The position numbers and the translations under genes were made by a program. From positions 419,230-483,229 of the forward strand of contig PBKD01000014.1 in assembly GCA_002722055.1 (NCBI GenBank): DNA of 64,000 nt. The letters run 5' to 3'. Each line of letters opens with the position of its first letter. Within the stretch, counting starts at the first letter, position 1. Source of the stretch: Rhodospirillaceae bacterium. GTDB taxonomy: Bacteria > Pseudomonadota > Alphaproteobacteria > SHVP01. Below the pieces are notes generated by a model that was not told where the DNA came from, ran no database searches, and was given only the letters and a program-made list of their open reading frames with translations. Below, piece after piece: positions 4,517 to 49,093 of this stretch.

Positions 4517-5824
4517 TTGACTATTGATTATTTTTTACAAAAATTTTCTAAACTTTACCCTAAGTCAATTGATCTTTCACTAGATAGAATCAAAATACTA
4601 TTAGATAAGTTAGGTAATCCTGAAAAAAAATTGCCACCAATAATACATGTTGCTGGAACAAATGGAAAAGGATCTACGATTGCTTTTTTAAAAAGTATTT
4701 TTGAAAGTGCAAATTATAAAGTTCAAGCATATACCTCGCCACATTTAATAAATTTTAATGAAAGAATTAGATTACCTAACGGTTTCATAAAAGATGATTT
4801 TTTAATTGATATTTTCAAGGAATGTAACTTTTATAATAAAAATGAACCTATTTCATTTTTTGAAATCACTACAGCAGCTGCATTTTTAGCTTTTTCCAAA
4901 AGTAAAGGTGATATCTTACTTTTAGAAGTGGGTTTGGGAGGAAGGTTAGATACAACTAATGTAATTGAAAAGTCAATCCTATCAACTATAACTCCTGTCT
5001 CTCTTGATCATACTGAATTTCTTGGACAAAATATTGATTCAATAGCTTTTGAAAAAGCAGGAATAATTAAAGATAACGGTAGAGTTTTAATTGGCCCTCA
5101 AACCCCTCGAGTTACTGAAATAATCAAAAAAATAGCAAATGAGAGAAATAATAATTCATTTATTTATGGTAGAGACTGGTTTTTTAATTCAAATTCAGAT
5201 AATTCAATAAAATTGAATTTCAAAGAAAACTCATTATTTTTACCTAAACCTAGGCTTAATGGTTTTCATCAAATCTCAAATGCAGCTCAAGCAGCAGCTT
5301 GCACAATGGCTCAAGATATTTTTAAAATTACAGAGAGTAATTTAGAAATAGGAATTCTAAACGCTTATTGGCCTGGTAGGTTGCAAAAAATTAATGTGAA
5401 TTTACCAGAAAAAAAAATTACGAACCTTCAGGTATGGTTAGATGGAGGGCATAATGCTAGTGCAGGAACTTATTTATCCAAATCAATTAAATCACTAGGC
5501 ATTGAAAAAACTAGTAAAATAGTTTTAATTTTAGGTATGCTTGATAATAAAGACTTTGTTAGCTACCTAGAACAATTCAAAAAAATCATTGACCTAATGA
5601 TTTTTATTCCAGTACCTAATAGTAATAATTATCATTCACCTGATAAATTGAAAAATTTTTCAGAAATGAATCTTAGGGTAAAAGCTAAGACTGCCAAAGA
5701 TTTTTTTGATGCGCTAAATATTATAGACACAATGGTACCACTTAAAAATACAAAAATAATTACTTGTGGTTCACTTTATTTGGTTGGGGAAGTGCTAAAA
5801 ATAAATGGTTATAATTTTAAATAA
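4517..5824 (+). CDS. folC: bifunctional folylpolyglutamate synthase / dihydrofolate synthase
   Basis: 435 aa with the HVAGTNGKGST P-loop and Mur-ligase-family architecture. The start appears to be TTG at 4517, because the in-frame ATG at 4501 runs into a stop. Confidence 0.8.
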   Translation: MTIDYFLQKFSKLYPKSIDLSLDRIKILLDKLGNPEKKLPPIIHVAGTNGKGSTIAFLKSIFESANYKVQAYTSPHLINFNERIRLPNGFIKDDFLIDIFKECNFYNKNEPISFFEITTAAAFLAFSKSKGDILLLEVGLGGRLDTTNVIEKSILSTITPVSLDHTEFLGQNIDSIAFEKAGIIKDNGRVLIGPQTPRVTEIIKKIANERNNNSFIYGRDWFFNSNSDNSIKLNFKENSLFLPKPRLNGFHQISNAAQAAACTMAQDIFKITESNLEIGILNAYWPGRLQKINVNLPEKKITNLQVWLDGGHNASAGTYLSKSIKSLGIEKTSKIVLILGMLDNKDFVSYLEQFKKIIDLMIFIPVPNSNNYHSPDKLKNFSEMNLRVKAKTAKDFFDALNIIDTMVPLKNTKIITCGSLYLVGEVLKINGYNFK

Positions 5825-6137
5825 CTGATTCAATCCACTCAACTATCTTACTCTTAGGCAAAGCGCCTACTTTTGTAGAAACAATTTCACCATTATTAAA
5901 CAACATAAGTGTAGGAATACCTTTAACACCATACTTGCTGGGGGTTTGAGGATTTTCATCTATATTTAATTTTGAAATGGTTACCTTTTCACTCATTTCA
6001 TTAGATATTTCCTCAAGAGCAGGACCAATTTGCTTGCACGGTCCACACCATTCTGCCCAATAATCAACTAGTACTGGTTTTGATGAATTTAAAACATCTT
6101 GCTCAAATGATAGGTCAGTAATATTATTTGTAGCCAT
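5817..6137 (-). CDS. trxA: thioredoxin
   Basis: 106 aa with the WAEWCGPCK active site. Confidence 0.9.
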   Translation of the reverse strand: MATNNITDLSFEQDVLNSSKPVLVDYWAEWCGPCKQIGPALEEISNEMSEKVTISKLNIDENPQTPSKYGVKGIPTLMLFNNGEIVSTKVGALPKSKIVEWIESVI

Positions 6138-6245
6138 CTTAAGTCTAAACCTTTATATAAAAAATAATTAACATTAAAAAACCTATACTATTTGGTCAAC
6201 AAAATTCTTATAAAAATTCTTGATATTTACATTAGAGTATAAGAT

Positions 6246-8963
6246 TTATTCTATACGCTTTATATTCAATTCCCTATCTCCTAAGACTTTCTTAATATAA
6301 CAACATCCTTTCATTTTCTCAAAATTACTTTCCGCTAAGTCATACCAACTTCCTTTATCTATATTTCTTGTTTGACTGTAACCGCAAATATAAAGTCTAT
6401 CCCTAGCTCTTGTCATTGCAACATAAAATAATCGTAGATATTCTTTATATTCTTTATCTTTATTGAGTGAATTTATTTTATAATATTTTGAATTCTTATT
6501 TTCTGGTAGTGATGAAGGGAACATAATAAAAGCCAAATCATTCTCCTTAACAACATAAGGGTTTTTTTTATTTACTGGGACAGATGTTGTATCAGGTAAA
6601 AATACTATTGGAGCCTCCAGGCCTTTGGCACTATGAACAGTTAAAACACGCACCTTATTTCTAACACTACCTAAGTCGATTTGATAACTTATAGATGAAT
6701 TTTCAAACCAATGAATAAAACCTTGAAAAGATACTATATTATTTTCTTCATAATCTATAATTTGATTAAGAAACTCATCTATAATTTCATTATTTTGTTT
6801 GCCTAAATAACTTAAAATTTTTCTTCTACCTCCAGAATCTAATATATCGGAGTAAAATTTAAACGGACTATAAAAAGATTTTCTTTTTAATAAATCTATC
6901 AATGCATTATATATTTTTTTATACTTTGTATTTTTTTTAGAATAAATTAATAGTGAATCCCATAAAGATTTAGACCCTCGGTTAATTGATAACTCAAATA
7001 AATCATCTTCTTTAATATTAAATAATGGACCTTTAAGAACATTAGCTAATACAAAATCATCATTTGGTAATAATACAAATTCCATTAATTTAATTAAATC
7101 TTTAACTACCAAATAATCCTTTAATTTAATTTTTTCAGATGACACTACTGGAATATTATTTTTTTTAAGCTCGTTGATTATTCTTTGAAATAATAATCCT
7201 CTTTTACGAACTAAAATCATTATATCTCCCGCCTCTATAAATCTATTCTCTGAAACTAATATTTCCTTAGATGCCAACCATTCTTTTATTTGAATTGTAA
7301 TCAACCTTGCTAATTCAGATTCAGATGAAATATTATCAAATTGATTTACTGGAAGTTCCCAAATATCTCTCTGATTAATAGGCCTCTCAATAAGTGGCCA
7401 TATTTCAATTAAACCTCCACCATCTTTTCTAAATGAGTGATGATTTTTCCATTTTTTCATTTTTGATATTATTTGAGTTTCATTTTCATCAGCAAATATT
7501 TGGTCAACAAACTTTAGAATTATATCAATACTTCTATAAGATTTACTAAGACTGCTTATTTCAAAATTAATATTTATATTTTTGAAATAATCTATAAAAC
7601 TATTTTTAATATTTTCTAAATTTTCTGGATTAGCACCTTGAAAACTAAAAATAGACTGTTTTTCATCACCAACTACAAAAATACTTCTCTCATTTTTATT
7701 TATTGAATTTGTAGTAAAAATTTCAGTTATTAGAGTATGTAACAAATCCCACTGCTCAGAACTTGTATCCTGCGCCTCGTCTATCAAGAAGTGTTTAATT
7801 TGCTGATCAAATTTAAATAAAACCCATGGAGCAATATCAATCTTCTTAAAAAGATTTAAGCTAAAGTAAATTAAATCATCATAATCAAGTAAATTAAAAT
7901 TAAGTTTTATGTTCTGATATTCAATCATTATATATTTAAAAACCGTAAGAGAAGAAATAATCTTACTTGAGATATTAATAAATGATATCTTTTCTTCAGT
8001 TTCAAAAATTTTTTTTGCCTCAGAATTAATATCAATTACTAGTTCAGGGTACTTTTCTGATATTTTTTTGGAAACGATATTTTTTGCTATTGAATTTTTT
8101 TTAGTTAAAAATACTGACTTATAATCTTTCCAATCACTTTCTCTTTCTGAACTATTAATCCATTTATTAATAGCTCTACTATTTAAATTATCTTTTTTAC
8201 TACCCTCTGCTAGTTTATCTATAATATTTATTAATTTTTGCATTCTATATGAATTTATTTCGCAAGCTTTATCAACTAAAGAGGATGGGGTGTCTGATAT
8301 GTCTAAATCAAAGAGTTTATAAATATGATTTATAACTTTCTCAAGCTCATCGGATTGAGACCATATTTTACTTAAACTTATTTTTTTTGACACTAGTTCT
8401 GAGAATAATTCATTAAATCGTTTTTCGTCATTTTTGACGACTAAATTTTTAAGTGATTTATCAAATCTTCGATTATTCTTATATTTTTTAAATGCTAAGT
8501 TTCTAGCCTCTAAAATGTAATTAGCCGTTTCGTTTGCGGATAGAACTGAAAAATTTGGTAAAACTCCTGCTTCAATAGGGAATTTTTTTAAAATATTTTC
8601 ACAAAAGCTATGTATTGTTTGAATGTTTATTGATGAATGATCTTCCAGTAATCTCAAAGCTAAAGATCGTAATCTATTTGTATCTATATTTTTTGAAATT
8701 TTATATTTTTTTAAAATATTTTTAAGTTGATAATCTTCTAAATTTATCCAGTGAAATAATTTCTGATTAATTCTTTCATGCATTTCAATAGAAGCTGCTT
8801 TAGTGAATGTAAGACATAGTATTTGTGATGGGGGAACGTCTTTGATAAGTAATTCAATTATTCTCTCTACTAGTAAACTTGTTTTACCGGAACCAGCTGA
8901 TGCTGTTATCCATATACTCGAAAAACTCTCATAAATATTTTTTTTATATTCACTATTTTCCAT
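6246..8963 (-). CDS. addA: AddA-type (UvrD/Rep superfamily 1) helicase of the AddAB double-strand-break resection complex; apparently without a C-terminal nuclease domain
   Basis: 905 aa. Walker A (ASAGSGKTSLL), motif II (FLIDEAQDTS), motif III (VVGDEKQSIF), motif IV (LSKSYRS), motif V/VI (VLTVHSAKGLEAPIVFL…VAMTRARDRLYI). The protein ends about 45 aa after motif VI with no PD-(D/E)xK motifs. It lies immediately downstream of addB. Confidence 0.8.
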   Translation of the reverse strand: MENSEYKKNIYESFSSIWITASAGSGKTSLLVERIIELLIKDVPPSQILCLTFTKAASIEMHERINQKLFHWINLEDYQLKNILKKYKISKNIDTNRLRSLALRLLEDHSSINIQTIHSFCENILKKFPIEAGVLPNFSVLSANETANYILEARNLAFKKYKNNRRFDKSLKNLVVKNDEKRFNELFSELVSKKISLSKIWSQSDELEKVINHIYKLFDLDISDTPSSLVDKACEINSYRMQKLINIIDKLAEGSKKDNLNSRAINKWINSSERESDWKDYKSVFLTKKNSIAKNIVSKKISEKYPELVIDINSEAKKIFETEEKISFINISSKIISSLTVFKYIMIEYQNIKLNFNLLDYDDLIYFSLNLFKKIDIAPWVLFKFDQQIKHFLIDEAQDTSSEQWDLLHTLITEIFTTNSINKNERSIFVVGDEKQSIFSFQGANPENLENIKNSFIDYFKNININFEISSLSKSYRSIDIILKFVDQIFADENETQIISKMKKWKNHHSFRKDGGGLIEIWPLIERPINQRDIWELPVNQFDNISSESELARLITIQIKEWLASKEILVSENRFIEAGDIMILVRKRGLLFQRIINELKKNNIPVVSSEKIKLKDYLVVKDLIKLMEFVLLPNDDFVLANVLKGPLFNIKEDDLFELSINRGSKSLWDSLLIYSKKNTKYKKIYNALIDLLKRKSFYSPFKFYSDILDSGGRRKILSYLGKQNNEIIDEFLNQIIDYEENNIVSFQGFIHWFENSSISYQIDLGSVRNKVRVLTVHSAKGLEAPIVFLPDTTSVPVNKKNPYVVKENDLAFIMFPSSLPENKNSKYYKINSLNKDKEYKEYLRLFYVAMTRARDRLYICGYSQTRNIDKGSWYDLAESNFEKMKGCCYIKKVLGDRELNIKRIE

Positions 8964-8974
8964 ATATTTACTGT

Positions 8975-11944
8975 TTATATTTTATCCATCCATAAATCGT
9001 ACCTTGCTAGTTGGTGATAATCTTTATAACTATTGGTATTACGCCATGGATTAAACAAGTATGGTGTATTAGGGTTTTCAAATACATCAATAAGTTTCTT
9101 TAGGCCTTTCTCGGCATCATTAATTAAATTATTAACATTATTCAAATTATTCAAGCCTCTATCACTAGAGTTAGCAAGCTTTAAATATCTGAGATAATTT
9201 ACTTTCTTAAAATTAACTTTCTCAAACTCACCTAATTCAGCTATTAAACCTAACAATTGGAGCTGAGGTTTGATACCTTTTTCGACTTCAGATCTATTTG
9301 GCATAGAAGCTGTTTTATAATCAACAATCCCACAATGTCCCTCATCTAAAATTTCTATTCTATCTGCTTTTCCTTTTAACTTAAACTCTCCAATCTTAGT
9401 TTGAAATATATAGGATCCTCTCTCTTCAGTGATTAAATCTCCTTCAAAAATATTTCTTTGATTATTAATGCACCATGAAGCTATCTCCTCGAACCTAGGC
9501 CACCAAAAGCTACTAATAACTGGATCACTTATCTTAGTTCCAAGCAAGTTTATTCCTACATTAAGAAGGTTTTTTATACTTGGTTCAATTCCAATTTTAG
9601 AAACTTCTTTTGCAAAGGTATCTAATGCTTTATGAATGAACTGACCTTGCTTGCTAACATCTGGATCAAAAATAATAGAGTTTAGAGGCTGAATTTTTAA
9701 TATCTTTTTCATGTATACGGCATACGGATTATTGATTAATAAATCAATATCTGAAATTGATAAAGTTCTGGGTCTATATAATAAAGGGGGACAAACTACT
9801 GGAGCATGAGTCTCTATATAATTATCTGGCGTATAGAAAGAGTTTGCTAAATATTTAATTTCTGATTCTCTTTTTTTCTCTTCTTCACCTGGCAATCCAA
9901 TTAAATTATTAATACGAGTAAGCCACCTCGATGGAGAAGTTTGCTTTCCATTTTTTATCATAGACCTCGTTAAATATACTTCTGAAGAACAAAGATTCTG
10001 GACAAAATCGTGTGCTAAAAGACTTATCTTTTTTTGATCAATATTTATACCCAGTTTTTTACTAATATTGAGAGAAAGCCATGGACTTATCTCTTTTAAT
10101 GATGGCCATGAATCTTCGTTTAGATCTGATAATATCACAACATCAGCTTTATGCAACCTAGACTCAAAGGGTGTCCAAATATTAACTCTATATTCATTTT
10201 GAAAATTTTTTTCTTCTGTAATTGTATTAAATATTTTAAAAAGAAATTCCGTATAGTTTTTTTTATTTATTAGTTCTGCATCTGATATTTTACTAAGCAC
10301 TATATTAAGTTTTATGATATTTTCTTCTAGCTTAGAGTTTATTGAGATGGTATTACTACTTAAACAAAAAAAATCGCTATTTAAATTTAACCAATTGACT
10401 AGATCAATATTATATTTAAATAATTTTTTTATATTATTCTCAGAGTTATTAAATTTTTTCCTGAAATCTAAAAGTATATTTAAATTATCTTTCATCCAAA
10501 AACAAAATTCACTATGATATGGAATTGATTCATATTCAGAGTCACTAATTTTTTCTTCATTAATTAAGCTGATTATTTGCTCTATACTATTTATTGGAAA
10601 TGGTTTCCTTAGATATTTCTTTTCAAAATATTCAATACTAGAAATATGTATCTCTTTATCATTTGGGAATGAAAGTTTGTGTTTAAGCATTGATAATAGA
10701 TTTAGTATAGAAAAATTTTCTGACAAAAATTTAGCAGTAATTAATATAAAATTTCCTTCCAAAGTATTGGTGAGATTATCATTAGGCAAATTAATTTCTT
10801 TTATTTTTCTTTTTTTTAATTCAAGAACAACTCTCCTAACTAGATTTTTATTTGATGTGACTAATGCAATACTTTTTTTTGTTTTTTTAAAAGTTTTGTC
10901 GATAATTGCAGAAATTATTCTTGACTCCTCATTCTCTGAGTTACAAGAAATTCTAAAAAATCTATTTAAGTTATAATTTGAGATATTATATTTACGCCAA
11001 TTTTCAATTTTTTCTAATGGAATCATAATTTGACTAACCAATAAATCTCTATCAATATTGATAAGATTACTATCTTTATTCCATTTAATAATATTATCTC
11101 TATTTACATTGATATTTGATAATAATGACTTGATATTATATTGAGGGTGTGTTTCGTCTACGTATTTCCAACCATCTGAGTCTAAACATTTATCAAGCCC
11201 TGGGATAATTACAAAACCATTAGGGAGATTTGATACAAATTGAATGAGATTTCTTGTAACAGGCACACTTCCAGTTGAACCAGCAATAATAATGTTATCT
11301 GAAGGAGGATTTTCTTTCCATACTTTAATTAAGTTTTCAATTGTATAGTAGTAGTTATCAGATTTACTAACAATATTATTTTCTTTTGCTATTTTTGGCC
11401 AAGATTGGATAATTATATTTAAAAAGCTTCCAACTTCTCTCCAATGAAAGGCTAAGTCATTTGGTATTATTTTGGTTAAATTATTTTCATTAAATTGATT
11501 TATATCAGTTTCATCAAGCAACCTTCCTAATTGCTTTGAAAGATCTAATAAATTTTTAATATCATCATCCTTCCTGCCCTGATGTAATTTCCATTGATAA
11601 ATTAACTTTGAAAGTAAAACAGATCTATTTATCTCGGAAATTAAATTAGCTATTTTCTGTCTTTCCTTTTTTTCAAATTCTATATTTAAATTATTTTTTA
11701 ATAAGAAATCATTATTTTCTTCTGAAGAAAATTCACCTAAAGAAATGATATCAGGTAGGTTTTTGTTATCTATTTTTAGTTTTTCTACCAAGACTCTTTT
11801 AAAACTTATTTTAGACTTTTCAGTGGGTAAAAAGACTTTAGTTTTACTATATCCATCAGTATTGTTAACACGTTCTTTTAAACCAAAAGCTAGTGCTTCA
11901 ATAAAACTCTGACCTGATTGAATATAAAAAACCTTATTTTCCAT
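8975..11944 (-). CDS. addB: AddB-type helicase-nuclease subunit (inactivated helicase-like N-terminus, RecB-family nuclease C-terminus)
   Basis: 989 aa with a C-terminal nuclease motif (GKADRIEILDEGHCGIVDYKTA). Its size and its position upstream of addA match alphaproteobacterial addB-addA operons. Confidence 0.7.
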   Translation of the reverse strand: MENKVFYIQSGQSFIEALAFGLKERVNNTDGYSKTKVFLPTEKSKISFKRVLVEKLKIDNKNLPDIISLGEFSSEENNDFLLKNNLNIEFEKKERQKIANLISEINRSVLLSKLIYQWKLHQGRKDDDIKNLLDLSKQLGRLLDETDINQFNENNLTKIIPNDLAFHWREVGSFLNIIIQSWPKIAKENNIVSKSDNYYYTIENLIKVWKENPPSDNIIIAGSTGSVPVTRNLIQFVSNLPNGFVIIPGLDKCLDSDGWKYVDETHPQYNIKSLLSNINVNRDNIIKWNKDSNLINIDRDLLVSQIMIPLEKIENWRKYNISNYNLNRFFRISCNSENEESRIISAIIDKTFKKTKKSIALVTSNKNLVRRVVLELKKRKIKEINLPNDNLTNTLEGNFILITAKFLSENFSILNLLSMLKHKLSFPNDKEIHISSIEYFEKKYLRKPFPINSIEQIISLINEEKISDSEYESIPYHSEFCFWMKDNLNILLDFRKKFNNSENNIKKLFKYNIDLVNWLNLNSDFFCLSSNTISINSKLEENIIKLNIVLSKISDAELINKKNYTEFLFKIFNTITEEKNFQNEYRVNIWTPFESRLHKADVVILSDLNEDSWPSLKEISPWLSLNISKKLGINIDQKKISLLAHDFVQNLCSSEVYLTRSMIKNGKQTSPSRWLTRINNLIGLPGEEEKKRESEIKYLANSFYTPDNYIETHAPVVCPPLLYRPRTLSISDIDLLINNPYAVYMKKILKIQPLNSIIFDPDVSKQGQFIHKALDTFAKEVSKIGIEPSIKNLLNVGINLLGTKISDPVISSFWWPRFEEIASWCINNQRNIFEGDLITEERGSYIFQTKIGEFKLKGKADRIEILDEGHCGIVDYKTASMPNRSEVEKGIKPQLQLLGLIAELGEFEKVNFKKVNYLRYLKLANSSDRGLNNLNNVNNLINDAEKGLKKLIDVFENPNTPYLFNPWRNTNSYKDYHQLARYDLWMDKI

Positions 11945-11953
11945 TTAAATACT

Positions 11954-12685
11954 TCATATTTTTTTTAACTGTCTTTCTGCATTTATTACCTCTTCTGGAG
12001 TGCCTACATGCAACCAATTACCTGAATAAATTATACCATAAAGCTTATTTTTTTTAATAGACTCATCCCAAATTTTATTAATTGAAAAAGCGTTAGCTGG
12101 TAAATTAAAAAATTTAGAAGTGTTTGCAAGACATAGTCCAGTATATATGTAACGTTCTGAGTTATTACCTCTAACCCTGGTTATATTATTATATTTATTT
12201 ATATTAAAATCACCTGAACCTTTATAATATTTTGCCTTTTCTAATGGGAATAATAATAATAAAAAATCCATTTTTTCTGGATTCCATAGGCTTATCATCT
12301 TATTCATTATGTTGATTTCTTTATCTACTCTAATCGTATCAGAATTTAGTATAAAAAAGGGATTTGAAGATATTAAATTTATTCCATTTACAATACCACC
12401 TCCAGTATCAAGAAGCTTATCAGACTCAATAGAAAATTTTATTTTTAATTTTTTTGAAATCTTTGACTTCTTATTGAGGTAAGATTCTAGCTTCTGTGAT
12501 TTGTAATGAAGATTTATGACTACATTATTAATTCCAAAATTTATTAAGTTTTCAAGTGAATACTCAATCAACGGTTTATTATTGACCTTAACTAATGGTT
12601 TTGGAATATCATGGGTTAAATGTTTCATTCTTTTCCCTAGACCTGCAGCTAGAATAAAAGCATCAATGTTAATTTTTTTATCCAT
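11954..12685 (-). CDS. sugar-phosphate nucleotidyltransferase, MurU-like (N-acetylmuramate-1-phosphate uridylyltransferase family)
   Basis: 243 aa with the N-terminal ILAAGLGKRM…PKPL nucleotidyltransferase motif; sits in the conserved position between the APH-like kinase and addB. Confidence 0.6.
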   Translation of the reverse strand: MDKKINIDAFILAAGLGKRMKHLTHDIPKPLVKVNNKPLIEYSLENLINFGINNVVINLHYKSQKLESYLNKKSKISKKLKIKFSIESDKLLDTGGGIVNGINLISSNPFFILNSDTIRVDKEINIMNKMISLWNPEKMDFLLLLFPLEKAKYYKGSGDFNINKYNNITRVRGNNSERYIYTGLCLANTSKFFNLPANAFSINKIWDESIKKNKLYGIIYSGNWLHVGTPEEVINAERQLKKI

Positions 12686-13694
12686 TTAATTTAGATATTT
12701 CTTCAGGTATAAAATATTTATAGGAATCAGCTAAATCTTTAAGTTCTGGGTTTTTTAAATTATTTTTTAAATTTTTCCATACTCTATTCATATGTTTTTG
12801 ATAACTTAATTTATTATCTCTTAATTTTAATCTTGCAAAAACGCCCAGAATTCTTGTATTTCGTTGAGCGCCAACACAATCATATATTAAATTAAACTCA
12901 TCTAACGTCCCTTTAAAAAATTGTAGGTAACGTTTCTTTAATTTATTTTGTAATTTTTCACTTACAGTAATTCTGGCATCCTGAAGTAAAGAAACAAGAT
13001 CATATACTGCTGGACCTATTAAAGCATCTTGAAAATCTAAAACACCAACCCTTTTAAAACTTGAACGGTCGTTTAACCAAACTAAGTTATCTATGTGATA
13101 GTCAAAGTGAGTAATTACATTAGATGCAGAGTGGATTTTTTTTGCTATTATTGACCAGCTATCTATGAAGTCTTTTTTTAATTTTTGATTTTTAGTTTCA
13201 CCAAAGTAATACGGTAGAGTCCAATCTAAAAATATTTGGACCTCATCCAAAATTCTTTTCTCAGAAAAAACCTCTAAGTTTGACGGCAAATCTGCATCCT
13301 GTAAAATTTTTAAAACATCAATAGCACTCTCATACAATAAGTCATATTTAGAATTATTTTGTATAAAATTATTAAATGTTTCTCTACCAAAATCTTCCAA
13401 TAATACAAAGCCTTTATCATGATCTACTTTAAATATCTCAGGAACACTTAAATTTATTTCCTTTAAAATATTTGCTACATTTAAAAATCTTTCTAAATTA
13501 ATAAATTCTTGATCATCCATTAATATCATACTCACTTCTTGATTATATAACCTGTGATATCTTCTATGAGAAGCATCACTCTTCATCAATACTAATTGAT
13601 CTGAACTGATATTATTTTTTGTCAGGAAATCTTCAATAAGATGTAATTTTTTTTTAATTACCATAACCAATTTTTCTATTTTTCCATTTCCCAA
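12678..13694 (-). CDS. aminoglycoside-phosphotransferase-fold kinase, AmgK-like (anomeric MurNAc/GlcNAc kinase family)
   Basis: 338 aa with the catalytic loop HFDYHIDNLVW (HxDxxxxN) and the VLDFQDA metal-binding motif; conserved partner of the downstream nucleotidyltransferase. Confidence 0.6.
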   Translation of the reverse strand: MGNGKIEKLVMVIKKKLHLIEDFLTKNNISSDQLVLMKSDASHRRYHRLYNQEVSMILMDDQEFINLERFLNVANILKEINLSVPEIFKVDHDKGFVLLEDFGRETFNNFIQNNSKYDLLYESAIDVLKILQDADLPSNLEVFSEKRILDEVQIFLDWTLPYYFGETKNQKLKKDFIDSWSIIAKKIHSASNVITHFDYHIDNLVWLNDRSSFKRVGVLDFQDALIGPAVYDLVSLLQDARITVSEKLQNKLKKRYLQFFKGTLDEFNLIYDCVGAQRNTRILGVFARLKLRDNKLSYQKHMNRVWKNLKNNLKNPELKDLADSYKYFIPEEISKLNG

Positions 13695-14079
13695 AACTAT
13701 TTAATGTCACAGATCTTACATTTGTATTTTCAGCTAAAATCTTTAGTTGAATCTCTAGCCTATCTCTTGGAAAATGATTCTTAATTAATTCTGGCCATTC
13801 TACTAATAATATTCCTTTTTCTAACGCATCCTCAATCCCCAGCTCCCAAACCTCACTAGATGTTTTCAATCTATATAAATCAAAATGCCAAATAGTGTTA
13901 AAGTTATTTTTATATGTAAACACAAAATTGTAGGTCGGACTTGGAACTCTGGTTTCTTTCGAACAAAAAAATTGGACAAAATATTTAGCAAAAGTAGTTT
14001 TACCTGAACCAACCCCGCCCTTTAAGGCGATAAATTCATTCTTCTGACATAAAGAAGCAACTTTATTAGCTAGTTTCAT
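13654..14079 (-). CDS. tsaE: tRNA threonylcarbamoyladenosine biosynthesis ATPase TsaE (YjeE)
   Basis: 141 aa with the P-loop GGVGSGKTT, SPTYNF, HFDLYRL and VEWPE motifs. Confidence 0.8.
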   Translation of the reverse strand: MKLANKVASLCQKNEFIALKGGVGSGKTTFAKYFVQFFCSKETRVPSPTYNFVFTYKNNFNTIWHFDLYRLKTSSEVWELGIEDALEKGILLVEWPELIKNHFPRDRLEIQLKILAENTNVRSVTLNSFGKWKNRKIGYGN

Positions 14080-19930: not shown

Positions 19931-21346
19931 ATGGTGGAAAATTGGGATGTTATTATTGTTGGAGCCGGAACAGCTGGAATACCAGCAGCTATTTTTGCAG
20001 GGCAAAGGGGAGCAAAAGTTTTACTTGTTGATGCAGCTGACAAAATAGGGGGCACACTTCATTTAACTACAGGACAAATGAGTGCAGCAGGAACTTCCCT
20101 TCAAAAACAATTAGGAATAAGTGATAATTCTAATGACCACTTTGATGATGTTATGCGAATTAGTGAAAATACAGCTGATAAAGACTTGGTTAGACTTGCA
20201 GTCGATAATGCTGCCGAGACATTTGATTGGCTTATGACCAATGGCTTTACTCCTCTAGATAATCACCCTGTTCTTGGTAATGCACATGAACCTTATAGTG
20301 AAAGAAGGTATTATTGGGGTCCGTTCGGTGGTATTTCAATTCTAGACGCAATCACACCCCTTCTAGATGAACAAATAGCATCCGGGAACGTTGTAGTGAG
20401 CCTAAGAACAAAATTAAAAAATATAATTTTAAATAAAAAGGAAGTAACAGGAATCGAAATACAAGCAGAAGATGGGACTAATGCTATTATCAATGGCAAA
20501 AATATAGTTCTTTCAACTGGAGGTTATTCTTCAAACCCTACATTATTCAAGGAATTAAGTGGTCCAACATTATATTGGAAAGGGGCATACCCCTTTTCTA
20601 ATGGTGAAGGCCTTACCATAGCAAATAATATTGGAGGGATTTTAAGAGGAAAAGAAAATTATCTATGTGGATATGGAGCTATATTAAAAAACTTTGATTA
20701 CCCTTCCGAGGTAACTACCAGGGTAATATCTCACCCGCATTTAAGACTTCCTTGGGAAATTCATGTAAATGTTGATGGGGAACGTTTTTTCCAGGAAGAC
20801 TATGACTCGGTTCATGTAAGAGAAAAAAAACTGCTTGAGCAGGATAAACTTAAGGCATGGATTGTTTTTGATGATGAAATACTAAAAGAATCCCCGCCTC
20901 TTCTAAAAGACTTTTCAAAGGAAGATATGATTTCATTCTTCTCAAGCCACCCTATGTTTTATTATGCTAATGATTTACAAAGTCTAGCAAATAAATCAGG
21001 TATTAATTCAGAAGGACTTATAAAAACAATAGAAGAATATAATTTCAATATTGAAAATAATCATCCAGATTCATTTGGTAGAGTGCATAGGCCTCTTAAA
21101 ATTGAAAAACCACCTTTTTATTCTATCTGCACTCATGGAGTTTCTATAACAAGTACAGTTGGTCTTTTGGTAAATTCAGAACTAAATATTTTAAAAGAAA
21201 ATGGAGAACCAATAGGAAATTTATTTGCAGCGGGAGAAATTTTGGGTTCAGGACAAACTATGGGCAAATGCTCTGCAGGTGGTATGATGCTTACCCCTGC
21301 GCTCACTTTTGGAAGACTTCTAGGGCAAAAATTTTTGTCTTGGTAG
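19931..21346 (+). CDS. FAD-binding dehydrogenase, fumarate-reductase/succinate-dehydrogenase-flavoprotein-like family (paralog 1 of 3)
   Basis: 471 aa with an N-terminal Rossmann DVIIVGAGTAGIPAA and a C-terminal NLFAAGEILG…GG…LTPALTFGRLLG typical of FAD_binding_2 enzymes (FrdA, KstD, TcuA-like). Confidence 0.7.
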   Translation: MVENWDVIIVGAGTAGIPAAIFAGQRGAKVLLVDAADKIGGTLHLTTGQMSAAGTSLQKQLGISDNSNDHFDDVMRISENTADKDLVRLAVDNAAETFDWLMTNGFTPLDNHPVLGNAHEPYSERRYYWGPFGGISILDAITPLLDEQIASGNVVVSLRTKLKNIILNKKEVTGIEIQAEDGTNAIINGKNIVLSTGGYSSNPTLFKELSGPTLYWKGAYPFSNGEGLTIANNIGGILRGKENYLCGYGAILKNFDYPSEVTTRVISHPHLRLPWEIHVNVDGERFFQEDYDSVHVREKKLLEQDKLKAWIVFDDEILKESPPLLKDFSKEDMISFFSSHPMFYYANDLQSLANKSGINSEGLIKTIEEYNFNIENNHPDSFGRVHRPLKIEKPPFYSICTHGVSITSTVGLLVNSELNILKENGEPIGNLFAAGEILGSGQTMGKCSAGGMMLTPALTFGRLLGQKFLSW

Positions 21347-21374
21347 AATATAAATTAATTTTCTGGAGATTAAA

Positions 21375-22796
21375 ATGTCAAATCAATGGGATGTAATTAT
21401 TGTTGGAGCAGGCAGCGCTGGCATACCTTCTTCTATATTTGCAGCTAATAGAGGAGCAAAAGTTTTACAACTTGAAGCAAGTGATAAAATTGGTGGAACT
21501 TTAATGTTATCATCAGGTCAGATTTCCGCAGCCGGAACAAAAAGACAAAAAAAAATGGGAATAGAAGATAGCCCAGACGAACATTATGATGATGCACAAA
21601 GAATATCAGAAAATACTATTGATCCGGTGCTTGGAAAATTAGCTATAGATAATGCTGGTGCAACATATGACTGGCTGGAGAGTATTGGCTATGAACCAAT
21701 CAAGAGCCATCCAGTAGCTGGAGGTGCTCATGAGCCGTATCTAAAAAGAAGATACCATTGGGCTGAAAATGCAGCCATAGCAATTCTTGATGTTTTAAAA
21801 CCTATACATGAAAAACTTGCTGATGAGAAAAAAATTGATTTACGTTTAAATACTAGAATGAGAGAAATAATAAAAGATAATTCTGGTTCTGTGATAGGTG
21901 TTAAAGCAGATACGCATGACGGAGTAAAAGAGTTTTATGGTAAAAATACTGTAATTACAACTGGAGGATATGCTCATAATAAAGATTTGTGGAATGAATT
22001 AACTCCAAAAATCCCACTCAGATCTTGGACAAATGAATTTAGTTTAGGTGATGGTTTGATCGCTGCAAGAGAGATAGGCGCAGATTATGATGGATCAGAT
22101 AAATTTTTATGTACTTTTGCTGGTGTTCTTGAGAGACCAGAAGATCCATTTTCAACTTCATTAGGTATGCAATTCTCACCTCAAGTTAGAGAACCTTGGG
22201 AAATATATGTAAACAGTTATGGAAAAAGATTTGTTAGGGAGGATCACCCAAGTGTCCATATTCGAGAACATGCTTTATTAAAACAACCAAATCAAGAAAT
22301 GTTCATAATTTTTGATGAGAATATTCGCCAAAACGCTCCCTGTATAAACCCTCTGATGGAGAAAACAATTAATAATAAGTATGGCAATCATCCAAATTAT
22401 TCCAAATCTAAAACACTAACTGAGTTAGCTACAGCAATTAATGTACCTGAAAAAAATTTAATAGAAACAATTTCAAAATATAACTTTGCTGTAGAAACCG
22501 GAAATGACAAAGATTTTGGTAGAGTAAGAATGTTTGGTAAAATTGAAAAACCACCTTTTTATTCAATTCATGCTGGTGGAATAACAGTGGTAAGCCCAGC
22601 AGGATTAAAAACCAATGAGTCACTTGAGGTGATGGATACAAACGGTAAAATTATTCCTAATTTATTTGCTGCAGGAGAGGTCCTGGGTTTTACTAGGCTT
22701 TCTGGTTCAGCTTTTGTAAATGGTATGTCCTTAATGCCTGCTATTACTTTCGGGAAACTTCTTGGAGAAAAAATTCTTCATTGGAAGGAGAATTAA
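21375..22796 (+). CDS. FAD-binding dehydrogenase, same family (paralog 2 of 3)
   Basis: 473 aa, collinear with paralog 1 throughout (DVIIVGAGSAGIPSS…HEPY…REPWEIYVN…KPPFYSI…NLFAAGEVLG). Confidence 0.7.
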   Translation: MSNQWDVIIVGAGSAGIPSSIFAANRGAKVLQLEASDKIGGTLMLSSGQISAAGTKRQKKMGIEDSPDEHYDDAQRISENTIDPVLGKLAIDNAGATYDWLESIGYEPIKSHPVAGGAHEPYLKRRYHWAENAAIAILDVLKPIHEKLADEKKIDLRLNTRMREIIKDNSGSVIGVKADTHDGVKEFYGKNTVITTGGYAHNKDLWNELTPKIPLRSWTNEFSLGDGLIAAREIGADYDGSDKFLCTFAGVLERPEDPFSTSLGMQFSPQVREPWEIYVNSYGKRFVREDHPSVHIREHALLKQPNQEMFIIFDENIRQNAPCINPLMEKTINNKYGNHPNYSKSKTLTELATAINVPEKNLIETISKYNFAVETGNDKDFGRVRMFGKIEKPPFYSIHAGGITVVSPAGLKTNESLEVMDTNGKIIPNLFAAGEVLGFTRLSGSAFVNGMSLMPAITFGKLLGEKILHWKEN

Positions 22797-22801
22797 GATT
22801 T

Positions 22802-23563
22802 ATGAATAATTCTTTAATTAATAAAACAGCATTAGTAACAGGAGGTGGCGGACCGGCAATGGGTAGCTCACATTGCAATAAATTAGCAGAATTAGGAGCA
22901 CATGTTATTGTGCTTGATAAAAGAAAGGATAAGGCACAAGCAGTATCAAATAAAATCAGAGAAGATAATGGTTCTTCTGAATACATCACTTGCGATATAA
23001 CAAATATAAATGAAGTCAATGAAGCTCTTGACATAGTCACTAATAACTCCCCAATAGATATACTTGTTAATCATGCAGGAATATCTGGAATGTCATTACC
23101 ATTTGAAAAAGTTACAGAGAAAATTTACGATACAATGATGACTGTTAATTTAAAGTCTATGTTTTTTATAACACAAAAATTAGTTTCAAATATGAAGAAA
23201 AATAATTGGGGAAGAATTATCAATATTGCATCAGATTTTACAATGTATGGTAGCCCACTTGCTTCACACTATACTGCTTCAAAATCTGGAATATTAGGGC
23301 TAACTAAAAGTTGGGCTCGTGAATTAGCACCATGGAAAATATGTGTAAATGCAGTTGCACCAACATTATTAAAAAGTGAGTTAACTCTTGCCAGTGTTGG
23401 GGAAGAATTCTTGAATAAAGAGTCAAAAAGTGCCCCAATGGGATCTTTACCAAACGCTAATGATGTTTCTGAACTAGTCGCATTTCTTGCAAGTCCTTCC
23501 TCAAAAGCAATAACAGGTCAAACAATCAGTCCAAACGGTGGAAGAACTATAGTAGGAATTTAA
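22802..23563 (+). CDS. short-chain dehydrogenase/reductase (SDR)
   Basis: About 253 aa with the TALVTGGGG…G glycine-rich NAD(P)-binding loop, NHAG, and the catalytic S…YTASK. The start was chosen at ATG 22802, which is preceded by GGAAGGAG. Confidence 0.85.
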   Translation: MNNSLINKTALVTGGGGPAMGSSHCNKLAELGAHVIVLDKRKDKAQAVSNKIREDNGSSEYITCDITNINEVNEALDIVTNNSPIDILVNHAGISGMSLPFEKVTEKIYDTMMTVNLKSMFFITQKLVSNMKKNNWGRIINIASDFTMYGSPLASHYTASKSGILGLTKSWARELAPWKICVNAVAPTLLKSELTLASVGEEFLNKESKSAPMGSLPNANDVSELVAFLASPSSKAITGQTISPNGGRTIVGI

Positions 23564-23573
23564 ATTCTATAAA

Positions 23574-24971
23574 ATGGAGTTCGAACTTATAATCATTGGG
23601 GCAGGTATGGCTGGTTTGCCATGCTCAATTAGAGCAGCAGATAGAAATAAAAAAGTTTTATTAGTAAATAAAAATAAAAGTATTGGTGGTAAATTATCAA
23701 GAAGCACTGGACAAATAGCGGCAGCTGGAACAAATCTACAGAAGAGGCAAAATATTTATGATTACCCAGATCTACATTTTAAAGAAGCATGGGAAATATG
23801 TAAGTCAACAGCTGACCAAAAATTGCTCAGACTTGCAATAGACCACTTAGGTGAAACAGTAAATTGGTTAGAAAAAATTGGCGTTACTTTTCCGGATAAT
23901 CATCCTGTTATCACATATCAACATGACATTTACTCTACAAGAAGATATCAGTGGCCAGTTGGTTTCGGAAAAGAGATTTTAGATAAAATATTGCCTATAA
24001 TTGATAGATTTATTTCTTCTAAAAATATAACATTACTAAATCAAACTACTCTAGTCGATTTTATTGAAAATAATAATGTAATTGAAGGAGTTGTTTTATT
24101 AAACAATGAAGGAAAAAAATTAAAATATTATTCAAATAATATTGTATTAACTGCTGGGGGTTATACAAATAATGAAAAACTTTTTACAAAATATTCCCCA
24201 AAATCTTTCTTATATACTCCAAAATTTAATGGATCTGAGGGCTTAGTTCACAAAATAGCGGAAAGAAATAATTTTAAAATTGATGGAGGCGAACTATATA
24301 AAGGTATGATTGGAGGGGTGCTTCAAAAAAGTTCTGACAAGCATTCTGTATCAGTTTCAATAAATACGATCCCTCAAGATAGACAACCTTGGGAAATCTG
24401 GGTCAATTCTCAGGGGTATAGGTTCATGCGTGAAGATCATCCTAGTGCCGACTATAGAAGGCATAAAGTAAATGAACAAAATATGCAAAAATTTTTTATA
24501 ATTTTTGATCAAGGAATTTTTATTAATGCTCCACCCATCTCATTGACAAATGATGGCGGGTTAAAAGGTCATATTAATAATCAAGTCTCTTTAACTAGGT
24601 ATACTTCTATTAAAAAATTAGCTTATGAAATGAATATTGATTTTCAAGCACTCCTAAATACTATAAATGAATATAATAACTCAGTTAATAAAAATAATGA
24701 TACTTTTGGAAGAGAGCATTTGCCAAGAGAAATAAATAATCCACCATTTTATTGTATTGAATCTGTTGCTTTTGCATTACCCAGCCCTGCTGGTATAGCA
24801 GTTAATGAAAAGTTGCAAGTTTTAAATAATGATAATATCCCAGTAAGAAATATTTATGCTGCAGGTGAAATAATAGGAAATACTAGAATCATGGGCGAAC
24901 ATTATATTGCAGGTATGGGAGTGGGCCCTACTCTAGCTTTTGGCAAATTGCTAGGGGAAAATTTGAAATAA
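23574..24971 (+). CDS. FAD-binding dehydrogenase, same family (paralog 3 of 3)
   Basis: 465 aa, the most divergent paralog, but it keeps IIGAGMAGLPCS, TGQIAAAGT, RQPWEIWVN, NPPFYCI and NIYAAGEIIG. Confidence 0.7.
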   Translation: MEFELIIIGAGMAGLPCSIRAADRNKKVLLVNKNKSIGGKLSRSTGQIAAAGTNLQKRQNIYDYPDLHFKEAWEICKSTADQKLLRLAIDHLGETVNWLEKIGVTFPDNHPVITYQHDIYSTRRYQWPVGFGKEILDKILPIIDRFISSKNITLLNQTTLVDFIENNNVIEGVVLLNNEGKKLKYYSNNIVLTAGGYTNNEKLFTKYSPKSFLYTPKFNGSEGLVHKIAERNNFKIDGGELYKGMIGGVLQKSSDKHSVSVSINTIPQDRQPWEIWVNSQGYRFMREDHPSADYRRHKVNEQNMQKFFIIFDQGIFINAPPISLTNDGGLKGHINNQVSLTRYTSIKKLAYEMNIDFQALLNTINEYNNSVNKNNDTFGREHLPREINNPPFYCIESVAFALPSPAGIAVNEKLQVLNNDNIPVRNIYAAGEIIGNTRIMGEHYIAGMGVGPTLAFGKLLGENLK

Positions 24972-24975
24972 TTTT

Positions 24976-27684
24976 TTAGTGAGCTTCACTCCAGTTATCA
25001 CCTACTCCTATATCAACTAAAAGAGGTACTTTTAAGTTAACTACCTTCTCCATTACCTTCTTTATTTTAATTTTACTTTCCTCAACTTTACTCTCCAAAA
25101 CTTCAAAAATCAATTCATCATGCACTTGTAAAAGAAGCTTGAAATTTTGAGCAATCGTATCTTCATTATCAAATAATGCAATCATTGCTAATTTAATTAT
25201 ATCAGCAGAACCTCCTTGAAGAGGTGCATTTATTGCTTGTCTCTCTGCAAAAGATTTCTTTATATTATTTTTATCATTAATGCTAGATAAATATACCCTT
25301 CTTCCAAAAGGAGTAACAACATGACCATATTTTCTACAATAATTAACCTGAGATTTCATATAATCTTTAATACCAGGAAACTGTTTAAAGTATTTGGCTA
25401 TGTACTCTTTCGCTTCAGTATTTGATATGTTTAATTGCTTAGATAAACCAAAAGCGCTTATACCATAAATTATTCCAAAATTTATAGCTTTTGCTTTTCT
25501 TCTAAGGTCAGAAGAAACTTCTTTTTCTTTTACCCCAAAAACTTGAGAGGCAGTTGCAGAATGAATGTCTAAATTCTCTTTGAATGCTTTATTCAATTTT
25601 GGAACATCAGCCATATGAGCTAAAAGTCTAAGCTCAATCTGCGAATAATCAGCACTGACTAATTTAAAATTTTTAGGTGCAACAAATGCTTCCCTTATTT
25701 TTTTACCATCTTCAGTTCTTATAGGAATATTTTGGAGGTTTGGTTCGTTCGATGATAATCTTCCAGTATTAGTTCCTGACATTGTGTATGTTGTATGAAT
25801 TCGTTTAGTTTTTGAGTTGACTAATAAGGGTAGTTTCTCTGAGTAGGTATTTATAAGCTTTGCAAGCTGTCTCCAATCCAAAACTAACTTCGCTATTTTT
25901 ATCCCATTTTGATCAAGAAGCTCAAGAATATCTGCTCCAGTCCCCCAAGATCCAGCTTTACTTTTTTTTCCACCTTCAATTCCCATTTCATCAAAAAGTA
26001 TCTCACCAAGCTGCTTAGGAGAACCTATATTAAAATTCCTTCCAGCCTCTTTATATATATCTTTTTCTAGTACCTTTAATCTAGAATGAAAGTTTTTAGA
26101 TATTTTATTTAATATACCAGTATCAATTAAAAAACCGTTATTTTCAATTATATTTAAAATTTCTATTAGGGGTTTATCTACTTGTTGATGAACAACATAA
26201 GATTTGTTCATAACAAGTTCTATTTTTAAAATATTATGTAACTCTAAAATTGAATCAGCTATTGCACAAGTAAAATCTCTCAATTTTTTTAAGTCTATTT
26301 CATCTATATTTTTTTTGGACTTACCTGTGCCAATAATTTCCTCAGGTTTAGTTATATTATTTTTTAGAAATTTATTTATGATTTCATTTAAGTTGTGATT
26401 ATATTTGCCTGTACCAGAATTGTATGACATTAGTAAGACATCATCATATGATTTAAGTCTTATTTGATAATCATTGATAATTTTAAGAAATTGCTTAACA
26501 TCATAAAAAACTTTTAATACTGAGGGACTCTCTAAAATTGAACGTAAGGAGTCAATAATTTGTTCCAATGTAAATCCATTTTCATTAGAATCGCTGATTA
26601 TAGGCAAATAAACAGAATGTCCAAGTTCATAACATAGCGACATTCCAATAATATTTTCCTTACCAATTATTAACTGTTCATTAAAAAAAACTATTGAACA
26701 TATTCCATTCTTTTCAGATAAGTCAAAATATTTTTTAATTTGCAACAAATCCTCGCAAACATGATATTCTCTTTCTACAATATGATCAGAATTAGGTTGT
26801 TCTATATATTCGTTATCTCTAGCAATTCTATTGACTAAACTATTAAATTCCATTTCCTTTAGAAATTCTATTACCTGTTTGTAATCTGGAAGAGCGTATT
26901 TGAATTTATCTAATTGCAAATTTATTTTTATATCACTTTTTAAAGTAACTAGTTTTCTTGATAAAATTGCATTTTCCGAAAACTCAATAAGTTTTTCGCG
27001 TCTTTTTGGCTGCTTAATTTGGTTAGCTTTTTTTAAAAGAGTATCTAAATCTCCAAATTTATTTATTAATTCTGCTGCAGTTTTTATCCCAATCCCTGGT
27101 ATACCTGGAATATTATCAGAGCTATCACCTGCAAGCGACTGAACATCAATAACCTTATCTGGCCTTACACCAAATTTTTCTATTACTTCTTTTTCTTCGA
27201 TATATTTATTTTTGATTGGATCAAGCATTGAAATACCTGGAGCAACTAGCTGCATTAGATCCTTATCTGAGGATACGATCTTTACATCAAAACCATCCTT
27301 TACAGCTAATTTAGAGTATGAAGCAATAAGATCATCTGCCTCAAAACCTTCTTGCTCAACCATCAAAATATTAAAAACTTTTGTAGCATCTTTGATAAGC
27401 TTAAACTGAGGTATTAAATCTTCCGGTGTTTCACCTCTGTTAGCTTTATAATCTTTATATATATCATTCCGAAAAGTTTTACTTCCCTTATCAAATATAA
27501 TAGCTAAATGAGTTGCCGAACCATTTGTGAAATTATTTTCAATTAACTTATTTATCATATTTATAAAACCTAAAACTGCACCAGTTGGAACTCCGTCTTT
27601 TTTTCTATAAAGTGGAGGTAATGCATGATATGCCCTAAAAATATAACCGGATCCATCAACTAGATATATGCAGTTTTTTTTCAT
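24976..27684 (-). CDS. polA: DNA polymerase I
   Basis: 902 aa with a 5'-3' exonuclease N-terminus (LVDGSGYIFRAYHA), a 3'-5' exonuclease domain, and polymerase motifs (RRKAKAINFGIIYG, VHDELIFEV). Confidence 0.95.
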   Translation of the reverse strand: MKKNCIYLVDGSGYIFRAYHALPPLYRKKDGVPTGAVLGFINMINKLIENNFTNGSATHLAIIFDKGSKTFRNDIYKDYKANRGETPEDLIPQFKLIKDATKVFNILMVEQEGFEADDLIASYSKLAVKDGFDVKIVSSDKDLMQLVAPGISMLDPIKNKYIEEKEVIEKFGVRPDKVIDVQSLAGDSSDNIPGIPGIGIKTAAELINKFGDLDTLLKKANQIKQPKRREKLIEFSENAILSRKLVTLKSDIKINLQLDKFKYALPDYKQVIEFLKEMEFNSLVNRIARDNEYIEQPNSDHIVEREYHVCEDLLQIKKYFDLSEKNGICSIVFFNEQLIIGKENIIGMSLCYELGHSVYLPIISDSNENGFTLEQIIDSLRSILESPSVLKVFYDVKQFLKIINDYQIRLKSYDDVLLMSYNSGTGKYNHNLNEIINKFLKNNITKPEEIIGTGKSKKNIDEIDLKKLRDFTCAIADSILELHNILKIELVMNKSYVVHQQVDKPLIEILNIIENNGFLIDTGILNKISKNFHSRLKVLEKDIYKEAGRNFNIGSPKQLGEILFDEMGIEGGKKSKAGSWGTGADILELLDQNGIKIAKLVLDWRQLAKLINTYSEKLPLLVNSKTKRIHTTYTMSGTNTGRLSSNEPNLQNIPIRTEDGKKIREAFVAPKNFKLVSADYSQIELRLLAHMADVPKLNKAFKENLDIHSATASQVFGVKEKEVSSDLRRKAKAINFGIIYGISAFGLSKQLNISNTEAKEYIAKYFKQFPGIKDYMKSQVNYCRKYGHVVTPFGRRVYLSSINDKNNIKKSFAERQAINAPLQGGSADIIKLAMIALFDNEDTIAQNFKLLLQVHDELIFEVLESKVEESKIKIKKVMEKVVNLKVPLLVDIGVGDNWSEAH

Positions 27685-41778: not shown

Positions 41779-44205
<2,427 letters not shown>

Positions 44206-44219
44206 CTATAATATTATTA

Positions 44220-45392: not shown

Positions 45393-45396
45393 ACAC

Positions 45397-46515: not shown

Positions 46516-46626
46516 TATTCTTGACCTTTAAATCTTAAGTCATAAAACCTGACTAAAATATAACATTAACATTAGTTAAATGGCAAAAAAAAACAGAAAA
46601 GCATAAGAATTAAAAAAAAACGTTAA

Positions 46627-48814: not shown

Positions 48815-49093
48815 CTAAAGGGAAAGTGCCTTAATTCTATTTGACAATCTAGAAATTTTTCTGGATGCAGTATTTTTTTTCATTACACCCTTACTGACAC
48901 CCTTCATTATTTGGGACTCTGCAGATTTAAAGGCTTCTATCGCAGCTGTCTGGTCTTTATTTTCAATTGCTGTTTCTACATTCTTAATTGAGGTCCTCAA
49001 AAAGGTTACTCTTGAACCTCTGACAAGAGTTTTCTTTTTATTCGACCTAATTCTCTTTAAAGCAGATTTATGATTTGCCAAATTGATCCCCAT
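48815..49093 (-). CDS. rpsT: 30S ribosomal protein S20
   Basis: 92 aa, basic, with ANHKSALKRIR… at the N-terminus. Confidence 0.9.
   Translation of the reverse strand: MGINLANHKSALKRIRSNKKKTLVRGSRVTFLRTSIKNVETAIENKDQTAAIEAFKSAESQIMKGVSKGVMKKNTASRKISRLSNRIKALSL

Follow-up and report, generated by a model that had tools for sequence, protein, structure and literature searches.

The stretch of DNA analysed here (the window) spans 64 kb of contig PBKD01000014.1 from a Rhodospirillaceae bacterium (assembly GCA_002722055.1) and carries the genes for AddAB, which in textbooks is the counterpart of RecBCD with one motor and two nucleases. The two genes, their neighbours and all the features of them described below lie on the minus strand of the window, and coordinates are those of the window. 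The gene addB (8975..11944) encodes a full-length AddB of the alphaproteobacterial type (989 aa; TIGR02786) and sits 11 nt upstream of addA (6246..8963), whose product is an AddA-type SF1A helicase of 905 aa without a nuclease domain, as judged from the open reading frame (ORF), the TIGR02784 and Pfam profiles, an AlphaFold2 (AF2) model and Foldseek.

The helicase part of AddA keeps motifs I, II and VI. Walker A / motif I (ASAGSGKTS, residues 21-29, 8877..8903) aligns with AAAGSGKT of Bacillus subtilis AddA and, in an alignment of 61 AddA sequences, its residues A21, A23, G24, G26, K27 and T28 are invariant, as are all five residues of motif II (DEAQD, residues 395-399, 7767..7781; D395, E396, A397, Q398 and D399). 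In the case of motif VI (VAMTRARDRL, residues 848-857, 6393..6422), which was located in the ORF and in the alignments, V848 and R852 are invariant, with A849, T851, A853, D855 and L857 conserved in at least 90% of the same 61 sequences. On Pfam, AddA matches UvrD-helicase, UvrD_C and AAA_19, and the intact motifs I, II and VI together with the PF00580 and PF13361 matches identify it as an SF1A helicase.

The ORF stops about 45 residues past motif VI. None of the elements of the C-terminal RecB-family PD-(D/E)XK nuclease (GxLIHxLLE, AEVP, GxIDRL, DYKT and QMxxY) is present in AddA, and PF12705 gave no match in Pfam even at E<=1. Against the NCBIfam model TIGR02784 (addA_alphas) the protein aligns over profile positions 11-893 of 1138 only, with 790.4 bits, which is below the cut-off of 860.75 bits for a full-length equivalog, and the models of PcrA and UvrD give 172 bits (cut-off 911) and 103 bits (cut-off 1144) respectively. 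With phmmer, the alignment to B. subtilis AddA (3u44_A, 1232 aa) covers residues 23-895 only. The AF2 model obtained from the 61-sequence alignment, with a mean predicted local distance difference test score (pLDDT) of 85 and a predicted template modelling score (pTM) of 0.76, displays a helicase and nothing else; its top Foldseek matches are B. subtilis AddA (4cej_A, E=8e-32) and Escherichia coli RecB, both with coverage of the helicase part only. Past motif VI, the C-terminal tail (residues 861-905, 6249..6383) is modelled as one helix (873-881) followed by a beta-hairpin (888-894 and 897-904) with pLDDT from 83 to 93, and on MAFFT alignment it matches the start of the linker between helicase and nuclease in full-length AddA. 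A hidden nuclease fold within the last 45-60 residues, considered in the first-pass annotation of this DNA as a degenerate fold in the last 60 residues, is ruled out, the tail being linker in the alignment and helix plus hairpin in the model. Sequence, profile and fold agree, and it is confirmed that this AddA has no C-terminal nuclease.

AddB is complete. It aligns with the NCBIfam model TIGR02786 (addB_alphas) over positions 2-1023 of 1024 with 568.4 bits and passes the cut-off of 486.5. Its PD-(D/E)XK nuclease domain occupies residues 727-923 (9176..9766; PF12705, E=1.5e-11), with the catalytic motif GKADRIEILDEGHCGIVDYKTA at residues 858-879 (9308..9373), as seen in the ORF and in the alignments. 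When six AddB of the alphaproteobacterial type were aligned, among them those of Emcibacter, Magnetospirillum and Sneathiella, each encoded beside a full-length AddA, residues H771, E840, D861, D875, K877 and Q894 were invariant, and the catalytic residues of the nuclease are thus all retained. The same alignment has no invariant Cys column and no Cys is conserved after GKADRIEILDEGHCGIVDYKTA. Bacillus-type AddB have four conserved Cys flanking the nuclease, which bind a 4Fe-4S cluster (PMC3378879); this iron staple is missing from the AddB of the window and equally from the alphaproteobacterial-type AddB sampled. The first-pass annotation was correct in noting that the Cys cluster is absent, but this is a feature of the type and not a peculiarity of the locus. 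A search for AddB relatives in the Protein Data Bank (PDB), by phmmer or with a profile of six sequences, returned none at E<=1 beyond borderline matches (E ~0.4-0.7), namely the AdnA nuclease motif and a generic PD-(D/E)XK protein, and it seems that no structure exists for the alphaproteobacterial AddB type.

At this locus, the one motor of AddAB is therefore accompanied by the nuclease of AddB only and not by two nucleases. The first-pass annotation had described a 905-aa AddA ending about 45 residues past motif VI, stripped of its nuclease domain, beside a 989-aa AddB keeping the motif GKADRIEILDEGHCGIVDYKTA, with a gap to trxA too short for a separate nuclease ORF. All of this is borne out, including by the comparison with B. 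subtilis AddA and by PF12705, absent from one protein and present in the other, and the single-nuclease AddAB that it proposed follows logically from the loss in AddA and the retention in AddB.

The conserved downstream neighbour trxA (thioredoxin, 5817..6137) fixes where addA ends. The 108-bp spacer between the two genes (6138..6245) holds no coding remnant and has a promoter-like element upstream of trxA: the block TTGTTGACCAAATAGTATAGGTTTTTTAATG, present in the window and largely conserved in two other lineages with short AddA when the spacers are aligned, resembles a -35/-10 promoter, which suggests that trxA may have its own promoter directly past the addA stop. Using five AddA nuclease domains as tblastn queries, no remnant of an AddA nuclease was found in the 64-kb window or in the 6-8 kb flanks of related loci, the sole genuine match in the window being the nuclease of AddB itself (9287-9394). 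Weak matches at ~38961-39209 were rejected as noise; they fall within an ORF (37845-39299) resembling a sugar kinase/nucleotidyltransferase, which we take to be hldE-like by eye, with no family search.

The short form is shared by a clade. Seventeen contigs, assembled independently of each other (ENA, NCBI, Logan and Tara) and up to 1.19 Mb long, encode an identical 905-aa AddA, and on all 17 the gene lies between addB and trxA. Two more species-level lineages have an AddA of 907 aa, MarineAlpha2_Bin1 at 75% identity and, at 59% identity, Rhodospirillaceae bacterium NAT392 together with several Tara samples. Both lineages have the gene order of the window, tsaE-APH-NTPtransferase-addB-addA-trxA-folC-accD-trpA-trpB-trpF-pyrF, and in all three addA starts 11 nt downstream of addB. 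In the window the conserved upstream neighbours tsaE, the APH-family kinase gene and the NTP-transferase gene occupy 11954..14079, and their order is the same in loci L001, L005, L010, L019 and L020. Across the three lineages identity goes down to 59% for AddA and 53% for AddB with both reading frames intact, and the short AddA orthologues terminate at one shared alignment position. These sequences come from metagenomes of marine plankton. The identical protein is deposited under a MAG named Rhodospirillaceae bacterium, and the relatives under Alphaproteobacteria bacterium MarineAlpha2_Bin1 and Rhodospirillaceae bacterium NAT392, names which lend no support to the Pelagibacterales framing of the first-pass annotation; nor is the truncation the one-off or artefact that the latter allowed for, being a conserved clade trait that has a precedent in Wolbachia (PMC4224334). 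In public records the 905-aa protein is named 'hypothetical protein' (MBL42865.1) and its relative at 75% identity 'ATP-dependent DNA helicase PcrA' (PPR80040.1); annotation pipelines miss the short AddA because its 790 bits fall under the TIGR02784 cut-off.

The nearest full-length AddA, P0005, has 1117 aa and is 38-40% identical to the short forms. Both P0005 and the AddA of Emcibacter (1142 aa) keep GxLIHxLLE, AEVP, GRIDRL, DYKT and QMxxY, and their loci show the addB-addA-trxA-folC...pyrF order of the short-AddA clade. Further outgroups are Sneathiella, with a 1131-aa AddA bearing PF12705 and addB-addA-trxA kept, and Magnetospirillum, with a 1147-aa AddA bearing PF12705 and addB-addA kept. 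When the helicase part was used for a neighbour-joining tree, the short AddA of the three lineages formed one clade, sister to P0005 and inside the AddA family, and this placement, together with the position directly downstream of addB, identifies them as AddA orthologues. Because the sister and the outgroups that share the gene order have AddA of 1117-1147 aa with the nuclease, the simplest history would be a single event in the ancestor of the clade, which cleanly removed 210-240 codons (linker plus RecB-type nuclease) from the end of addA. Truncated AddA occurs in a second lineage as well, unrelated to the first and formed by P0076 (908 aa, L006:4039-6765) and P0134 (886 aa, L012:3096-5756), which are 47% identical, are each found on two contigs and group together in the tree. 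Their loci have upstream hemC-peptidase S66-prfA in common and are not adjacent to addB, and no nuclease remnant was found downstream of either addA. This second lineage suggests that the AddA nuclease domain may have been lost repeatedly. In the literature, we found no reports of AddA nuclease loss in marine bacteria or in this clade.

Selection on the pair was estimated between the short-AddA lineages as the ratio of nonsynonymous to synonymous substitution rates (dN/dS) by the Nei-Gojobori method, with ratios that are approximate as dS is high (0.9-1.8). The ratio is 0.155-0.165 for addA and 0.19-0.22 for addB, compared with 0.19 for folC and 0.09 for trxA next to them. Segment by segment it stays between 0.11 and 0.32 throughout both genes, one addA segment having given no dS; the AddA tail (residues 861-905) shows 0.19-0.28, and constraint is strongest in the nuclease domain of AddB (0.12-0.14). 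Despite the approximate ratios, addA and addB are clearly under purifying selection and neutral decay is excluded.

Regarding the rest of the window, the region is AT-rich (26-31% GC). On the minus strand, dnaA, dnaN, recF (44220-45392) and gyrB form a cluster at 41779-48054, and rpsT is found at 48815-49093. Given this cluster the window is probably near the replication origin; DnaA boxes (TTATCCACA, up to one mismatch) are not enriched near dnaA (25 observed, 22.8 expected). Three paralogous genes for FAD_binding_2 oxidoreductases of ~470 aa follow each other at 19931-21346, 21375-22796 and 23574-24971, interrupted by one ORF of 260 aa, and such a row of paralogues (19931-24971) is an unusual redundancy for a compact genome. 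In the product of polA (24976-27684, 902 aa) the 5'-3' exonuclease and the polymerase domains match strongly, and the 3'-5' exonuclease-like middle domain gives only a weak and partial match (E=3.6e-07). No tRNA genes, and no Rfam families at the gathering threshold, were detected across the 64 kb.

Taking these observations together, we consider it fairly probable that the AddAB of this locus is functional in break processing and was turned into a one-motor, one-nuclease machine by a clean ancestral deletion of the addA 3' end. The 11-nt spacing of the genes and their co-conservation lead us to infer that AddA and AddB form a heterodimer in which AddB would recognise Chi. Such a complex of the 905-aa AddA with AddB would bind a double-strand end, and the SF1A motor of AddA would then track 3'->5' on the 3'-ended strand and unwind the duplex, while the displaced 5'-ended strand would pass the AddB nuclease and be cut. 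The strand specificity is read from the AddAB structure of B. subtilis, in which the 3' channel leads past the AddA motor, then the inactive helicase of AddB (Chi scanning) and then the AddA nuclease, whereas the 5' channel has the AddB nuclease only (PMC3321194). With the AddA nuclease gone, the 3' strand would be expected to emerge intact with the 5' strand cut, leaving a RecA-ready 3' tail from the very end of the break. No Chi would be needed to switch off a 3'-strand nuclease, and the ability to destroy duplex DNA would be lost. RecA could be loaded through RecFOR, recF being in the window, and/or through a contact with the helicase part of AddA. Complex formation, strand specificity, Chi-independence and the route of RecA loading are thus all predictions for this enzyme.

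Several findings on related enzymes are in line with such a mechanism. A C-terminal deletion of B. subtilis AddA, studied by Haijema et al. in 1996 (J Bacteriol), reportedly abolishes the exonuclease and largely keeps helicase and repair functions. Nuclease-deficient AddAB retains end binding, unwinding and Chi recognition (PMC3064778). In the case of AdnAB, recombination is at wild-type level when the nuclease of AdnB, the AddA homologue, is dead and is reduced when that of AdnA, the AddB homologue, is dead (PMC5314763); this asymmetry mirrors the nuclease kept by the short-AddA clade and makes a single-nuclease AddAB plausible. Furthermore, in Caulobacter, which has AddAB of the alphaproteobacterial type, the contact of RecA with AddA maps to the N-terminal helicase part and not to the nuclease domain (PMC5443536). 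Other points weigh against a functional one-nuclease enzyme. Ciprofloxacin resistance of Helicobacter pylori requires both AddAB nucleases (summarised in PMC5314763), hence losing the AddA nuclease can carry a cost in some species. The AddA-AddB complex is predicted from gene adjacency and co-conservation only. The window is a 64-kb read of a genome whose largest contig has 1.19 Mb, where a nuclease could be supplied in trans, and dS values of 0.9-1.8 make the dN/dS ratios approximate.

Supply in trans would imply a split gene, with the AddA nuclease made from a separate ORF elsewhere and docking onto the complex, so that a dual-nuclease AddAB would be kept. Only 64 kb of the genome are covered and, when the nuclease domain of P0005 was searched with HMMER against 1.84 billion representatives, many proteins of 150-400 aa consisting of this domain alone were returned. 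Most of the short matches inspected start inside AddA, as contig-edge fragments do; the best AT-rich candidate, P0289, is an ORF that starts in the segment after motif VI and is open to the contig edge, and the best match of all (41% identity) is a full-length AddA. No convincing stand-alone nuclease attributable to the short-AddA clade was found by this search; a word-index search with the same domain recovered nothing, P0005 itself included, and carries no weight here. As the window and the 6-8 kb flanks of related loci likewise lack a remnant or a separate copy, a split gene is unlikely. A mere assembly or sequencing artefact, in the form of a frameshift or contig break at the addA 3' end, has a negligible probability: this concern of the first-pass annotation is ruled out by the identical ORF and gene order on the 17 contigs, which come from different samples and assemblers and reach 1.19 Mb, by the orthologues ending at the same alignment position and by the negative tblastn searches, no nuclease-coding sequence lying downstream in any frame. 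The short AddA could also have been repurposed as a helicase acting alone, in the manner of UvrD or PcrA. Indeed, its domain content equals theirs, one of the NCBI names is 'ATP-dependent DNA helicase PcrA' (the other being 'hypothetical protein'), and the truncated lineage of P0076 and P0134 is not found beside addB. However, AddA scores 790 bits with addA_alphas against 172 with PcrA and 103 with UvrD, its place in the tree is inside the AddA family, and in three lineages it is kept 11 nt downstream of a conserved and constrained addB, which leaves solitary action quite improbable.

Another explanation takes the truncation for decay in progress, AddAB being lost by genome streamlining and the deletion marking the onset of pseudogenisation, a course that has been suggested for endosymbionts. 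The AT-rich composition (26-31% GC), a largest contig of 1.19 Mb with the ORF and the isopod Wolbachia strains with a premature addA stop (PMC4224334) would fit with it. Yet three lineages, with identities down to 59% in AddA and 53% in AddB, keep both reading frames intact, dN/dS is 0.16-0.22 and matches that of folC, a housekeeping gene nearby, no catalytic residue has been lost, and the deletion has left no debris, the new C-terminal tail being itself conserved; hence we regard decay as very improbable. It could be argued instead that AddB cuts both strands with its one nuclease, as RecB does in RecBCD, in which case duplex degradation and Chi control would persist. RecBCD is a precedent for one nuclease serving two strands, and in the B. 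subtilis complex the strands exit close together, but the short 5' channel there runs apart from the 3' channel (PMC3321194). Moreover, RecBCD depends on an additional motor for feeding in the second strand (PMC3064778), and the AddB of the short-AddA clade (986-989 aa) has no insertion or extra domain compared with AddB encoded beside full-length AddA (983-1007 aa). Cutting of both strands by AddB therefore seems improbable.

With AddAB acting on the 5' strand only as the favoured explanation, the locus looks like a natural single-nuclease AddAB that is stably maintained by a small marine clade with compact genomes and that resembles a mutant known so far as a laboratory construct only. The in vivo need for the individual AddAB activities is debated, H. 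pylori requiring both nucleases and mycobacterial AdnAB neither of them, and a clade that has lived long with the 5'-strand nuclease only is a natural experiment on this question, one which argues that AddAB can dispense with its 3'-strand nuclease and with Chi-gated degradation but not with its motor and the nuclease for the 5' strand. In this, the clade agrees with what was expected from engineered mutants and does not overturn it. More broadly, and as a joint claim that we hold possible rather than probable, this may be a natural Chi-independent AddAB that has discarded its 3'-strand nuclease, resects the 5' strand only, as eukaryotic and archaeal machines do, and no longer destroys linear duplex, the same loss having occurred at least twice more in alphaproteobacteria (P0076/P0134 and isopod Wolbachia). 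If true, the AddA nuclease, Chi-regulated degradation and the role against foreign DNA would be dispensable and would have been shed repeatedly in reduced genomes. On the practical side, the short AddA and AddB offer a ready-made enzyme for tests of Chi-independent resection, and the case exposes an annotation gap, a short AddA under the model cut-off being deposited as 'hypothetical protein' or 'PcrA'.

Compared with known systems, the pair of the window is closest to alphaproteobacterial AddAB (TIGR02784/TIGR02786; Caulobacter crescentus and Rhizobium etli), with which it shares orthology, neighbourhood, helicase motifs and an AddB without conserved Cys; it differs in that its AddA has no counterpart of profile positions 894-1138, corresponding to linker and RecB-type nuclease, and stays below the trusted cut-off. 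In the case of B. subtilis AddAB (3U44/3U4Q/4CEJ), the AddA helicase fold matches that of the window, whereas the AddB of the window is highly diverged and has no 4Fe-4S staple cysteines. By analogy, the window enzyme should resemble functionally the engineered nuclease-dead mutant AddA-D1172A of B. subtilis, with the difference that the domain is physically absent instead of point-mutated. In E. coli RecBC(D-) and RecB-nuclease mutants, as in eukaryotic Sgs1/BLM-Dna2, the 3' strand is spared from the start and there is no Chi control; their subunit composition is unrelated to that of the window enzyme and the likeness is in outcome only.

Mycobacterial AdnAB with a nuclease-dead AdnB shows wild-type recombination (PMC5314763), which matches the tolerance implied in the short-AddA clade, although in AdnAB both motors are active and a Chi sequence is not known, and the mutant is engineered and not natural. 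The closest natural parallel in the loss itself is Wolbachia supergroup B from isopod hosts, where a premature addA stop removes the whole nuclease domain (Badawi et al. 2014, PMC4224334) and the helicase part is under purifying selection (PMC4224334). In both cases an alphaproteobacterium has naturally lost the entire AddA nuclease domain. The isopod Wolbachia are obligate endosymbionts with a recent stop codon and the downstream coding remnant still present, whereas the clade of the window has a clean deletion with no remnant in lineages down to 59% identity, found in marine plankton metagenomes. Hence, the loss of the AddA nuclease was known before in Wolbachia, and it is the clean and conserved deletion of the marine clade that is new.

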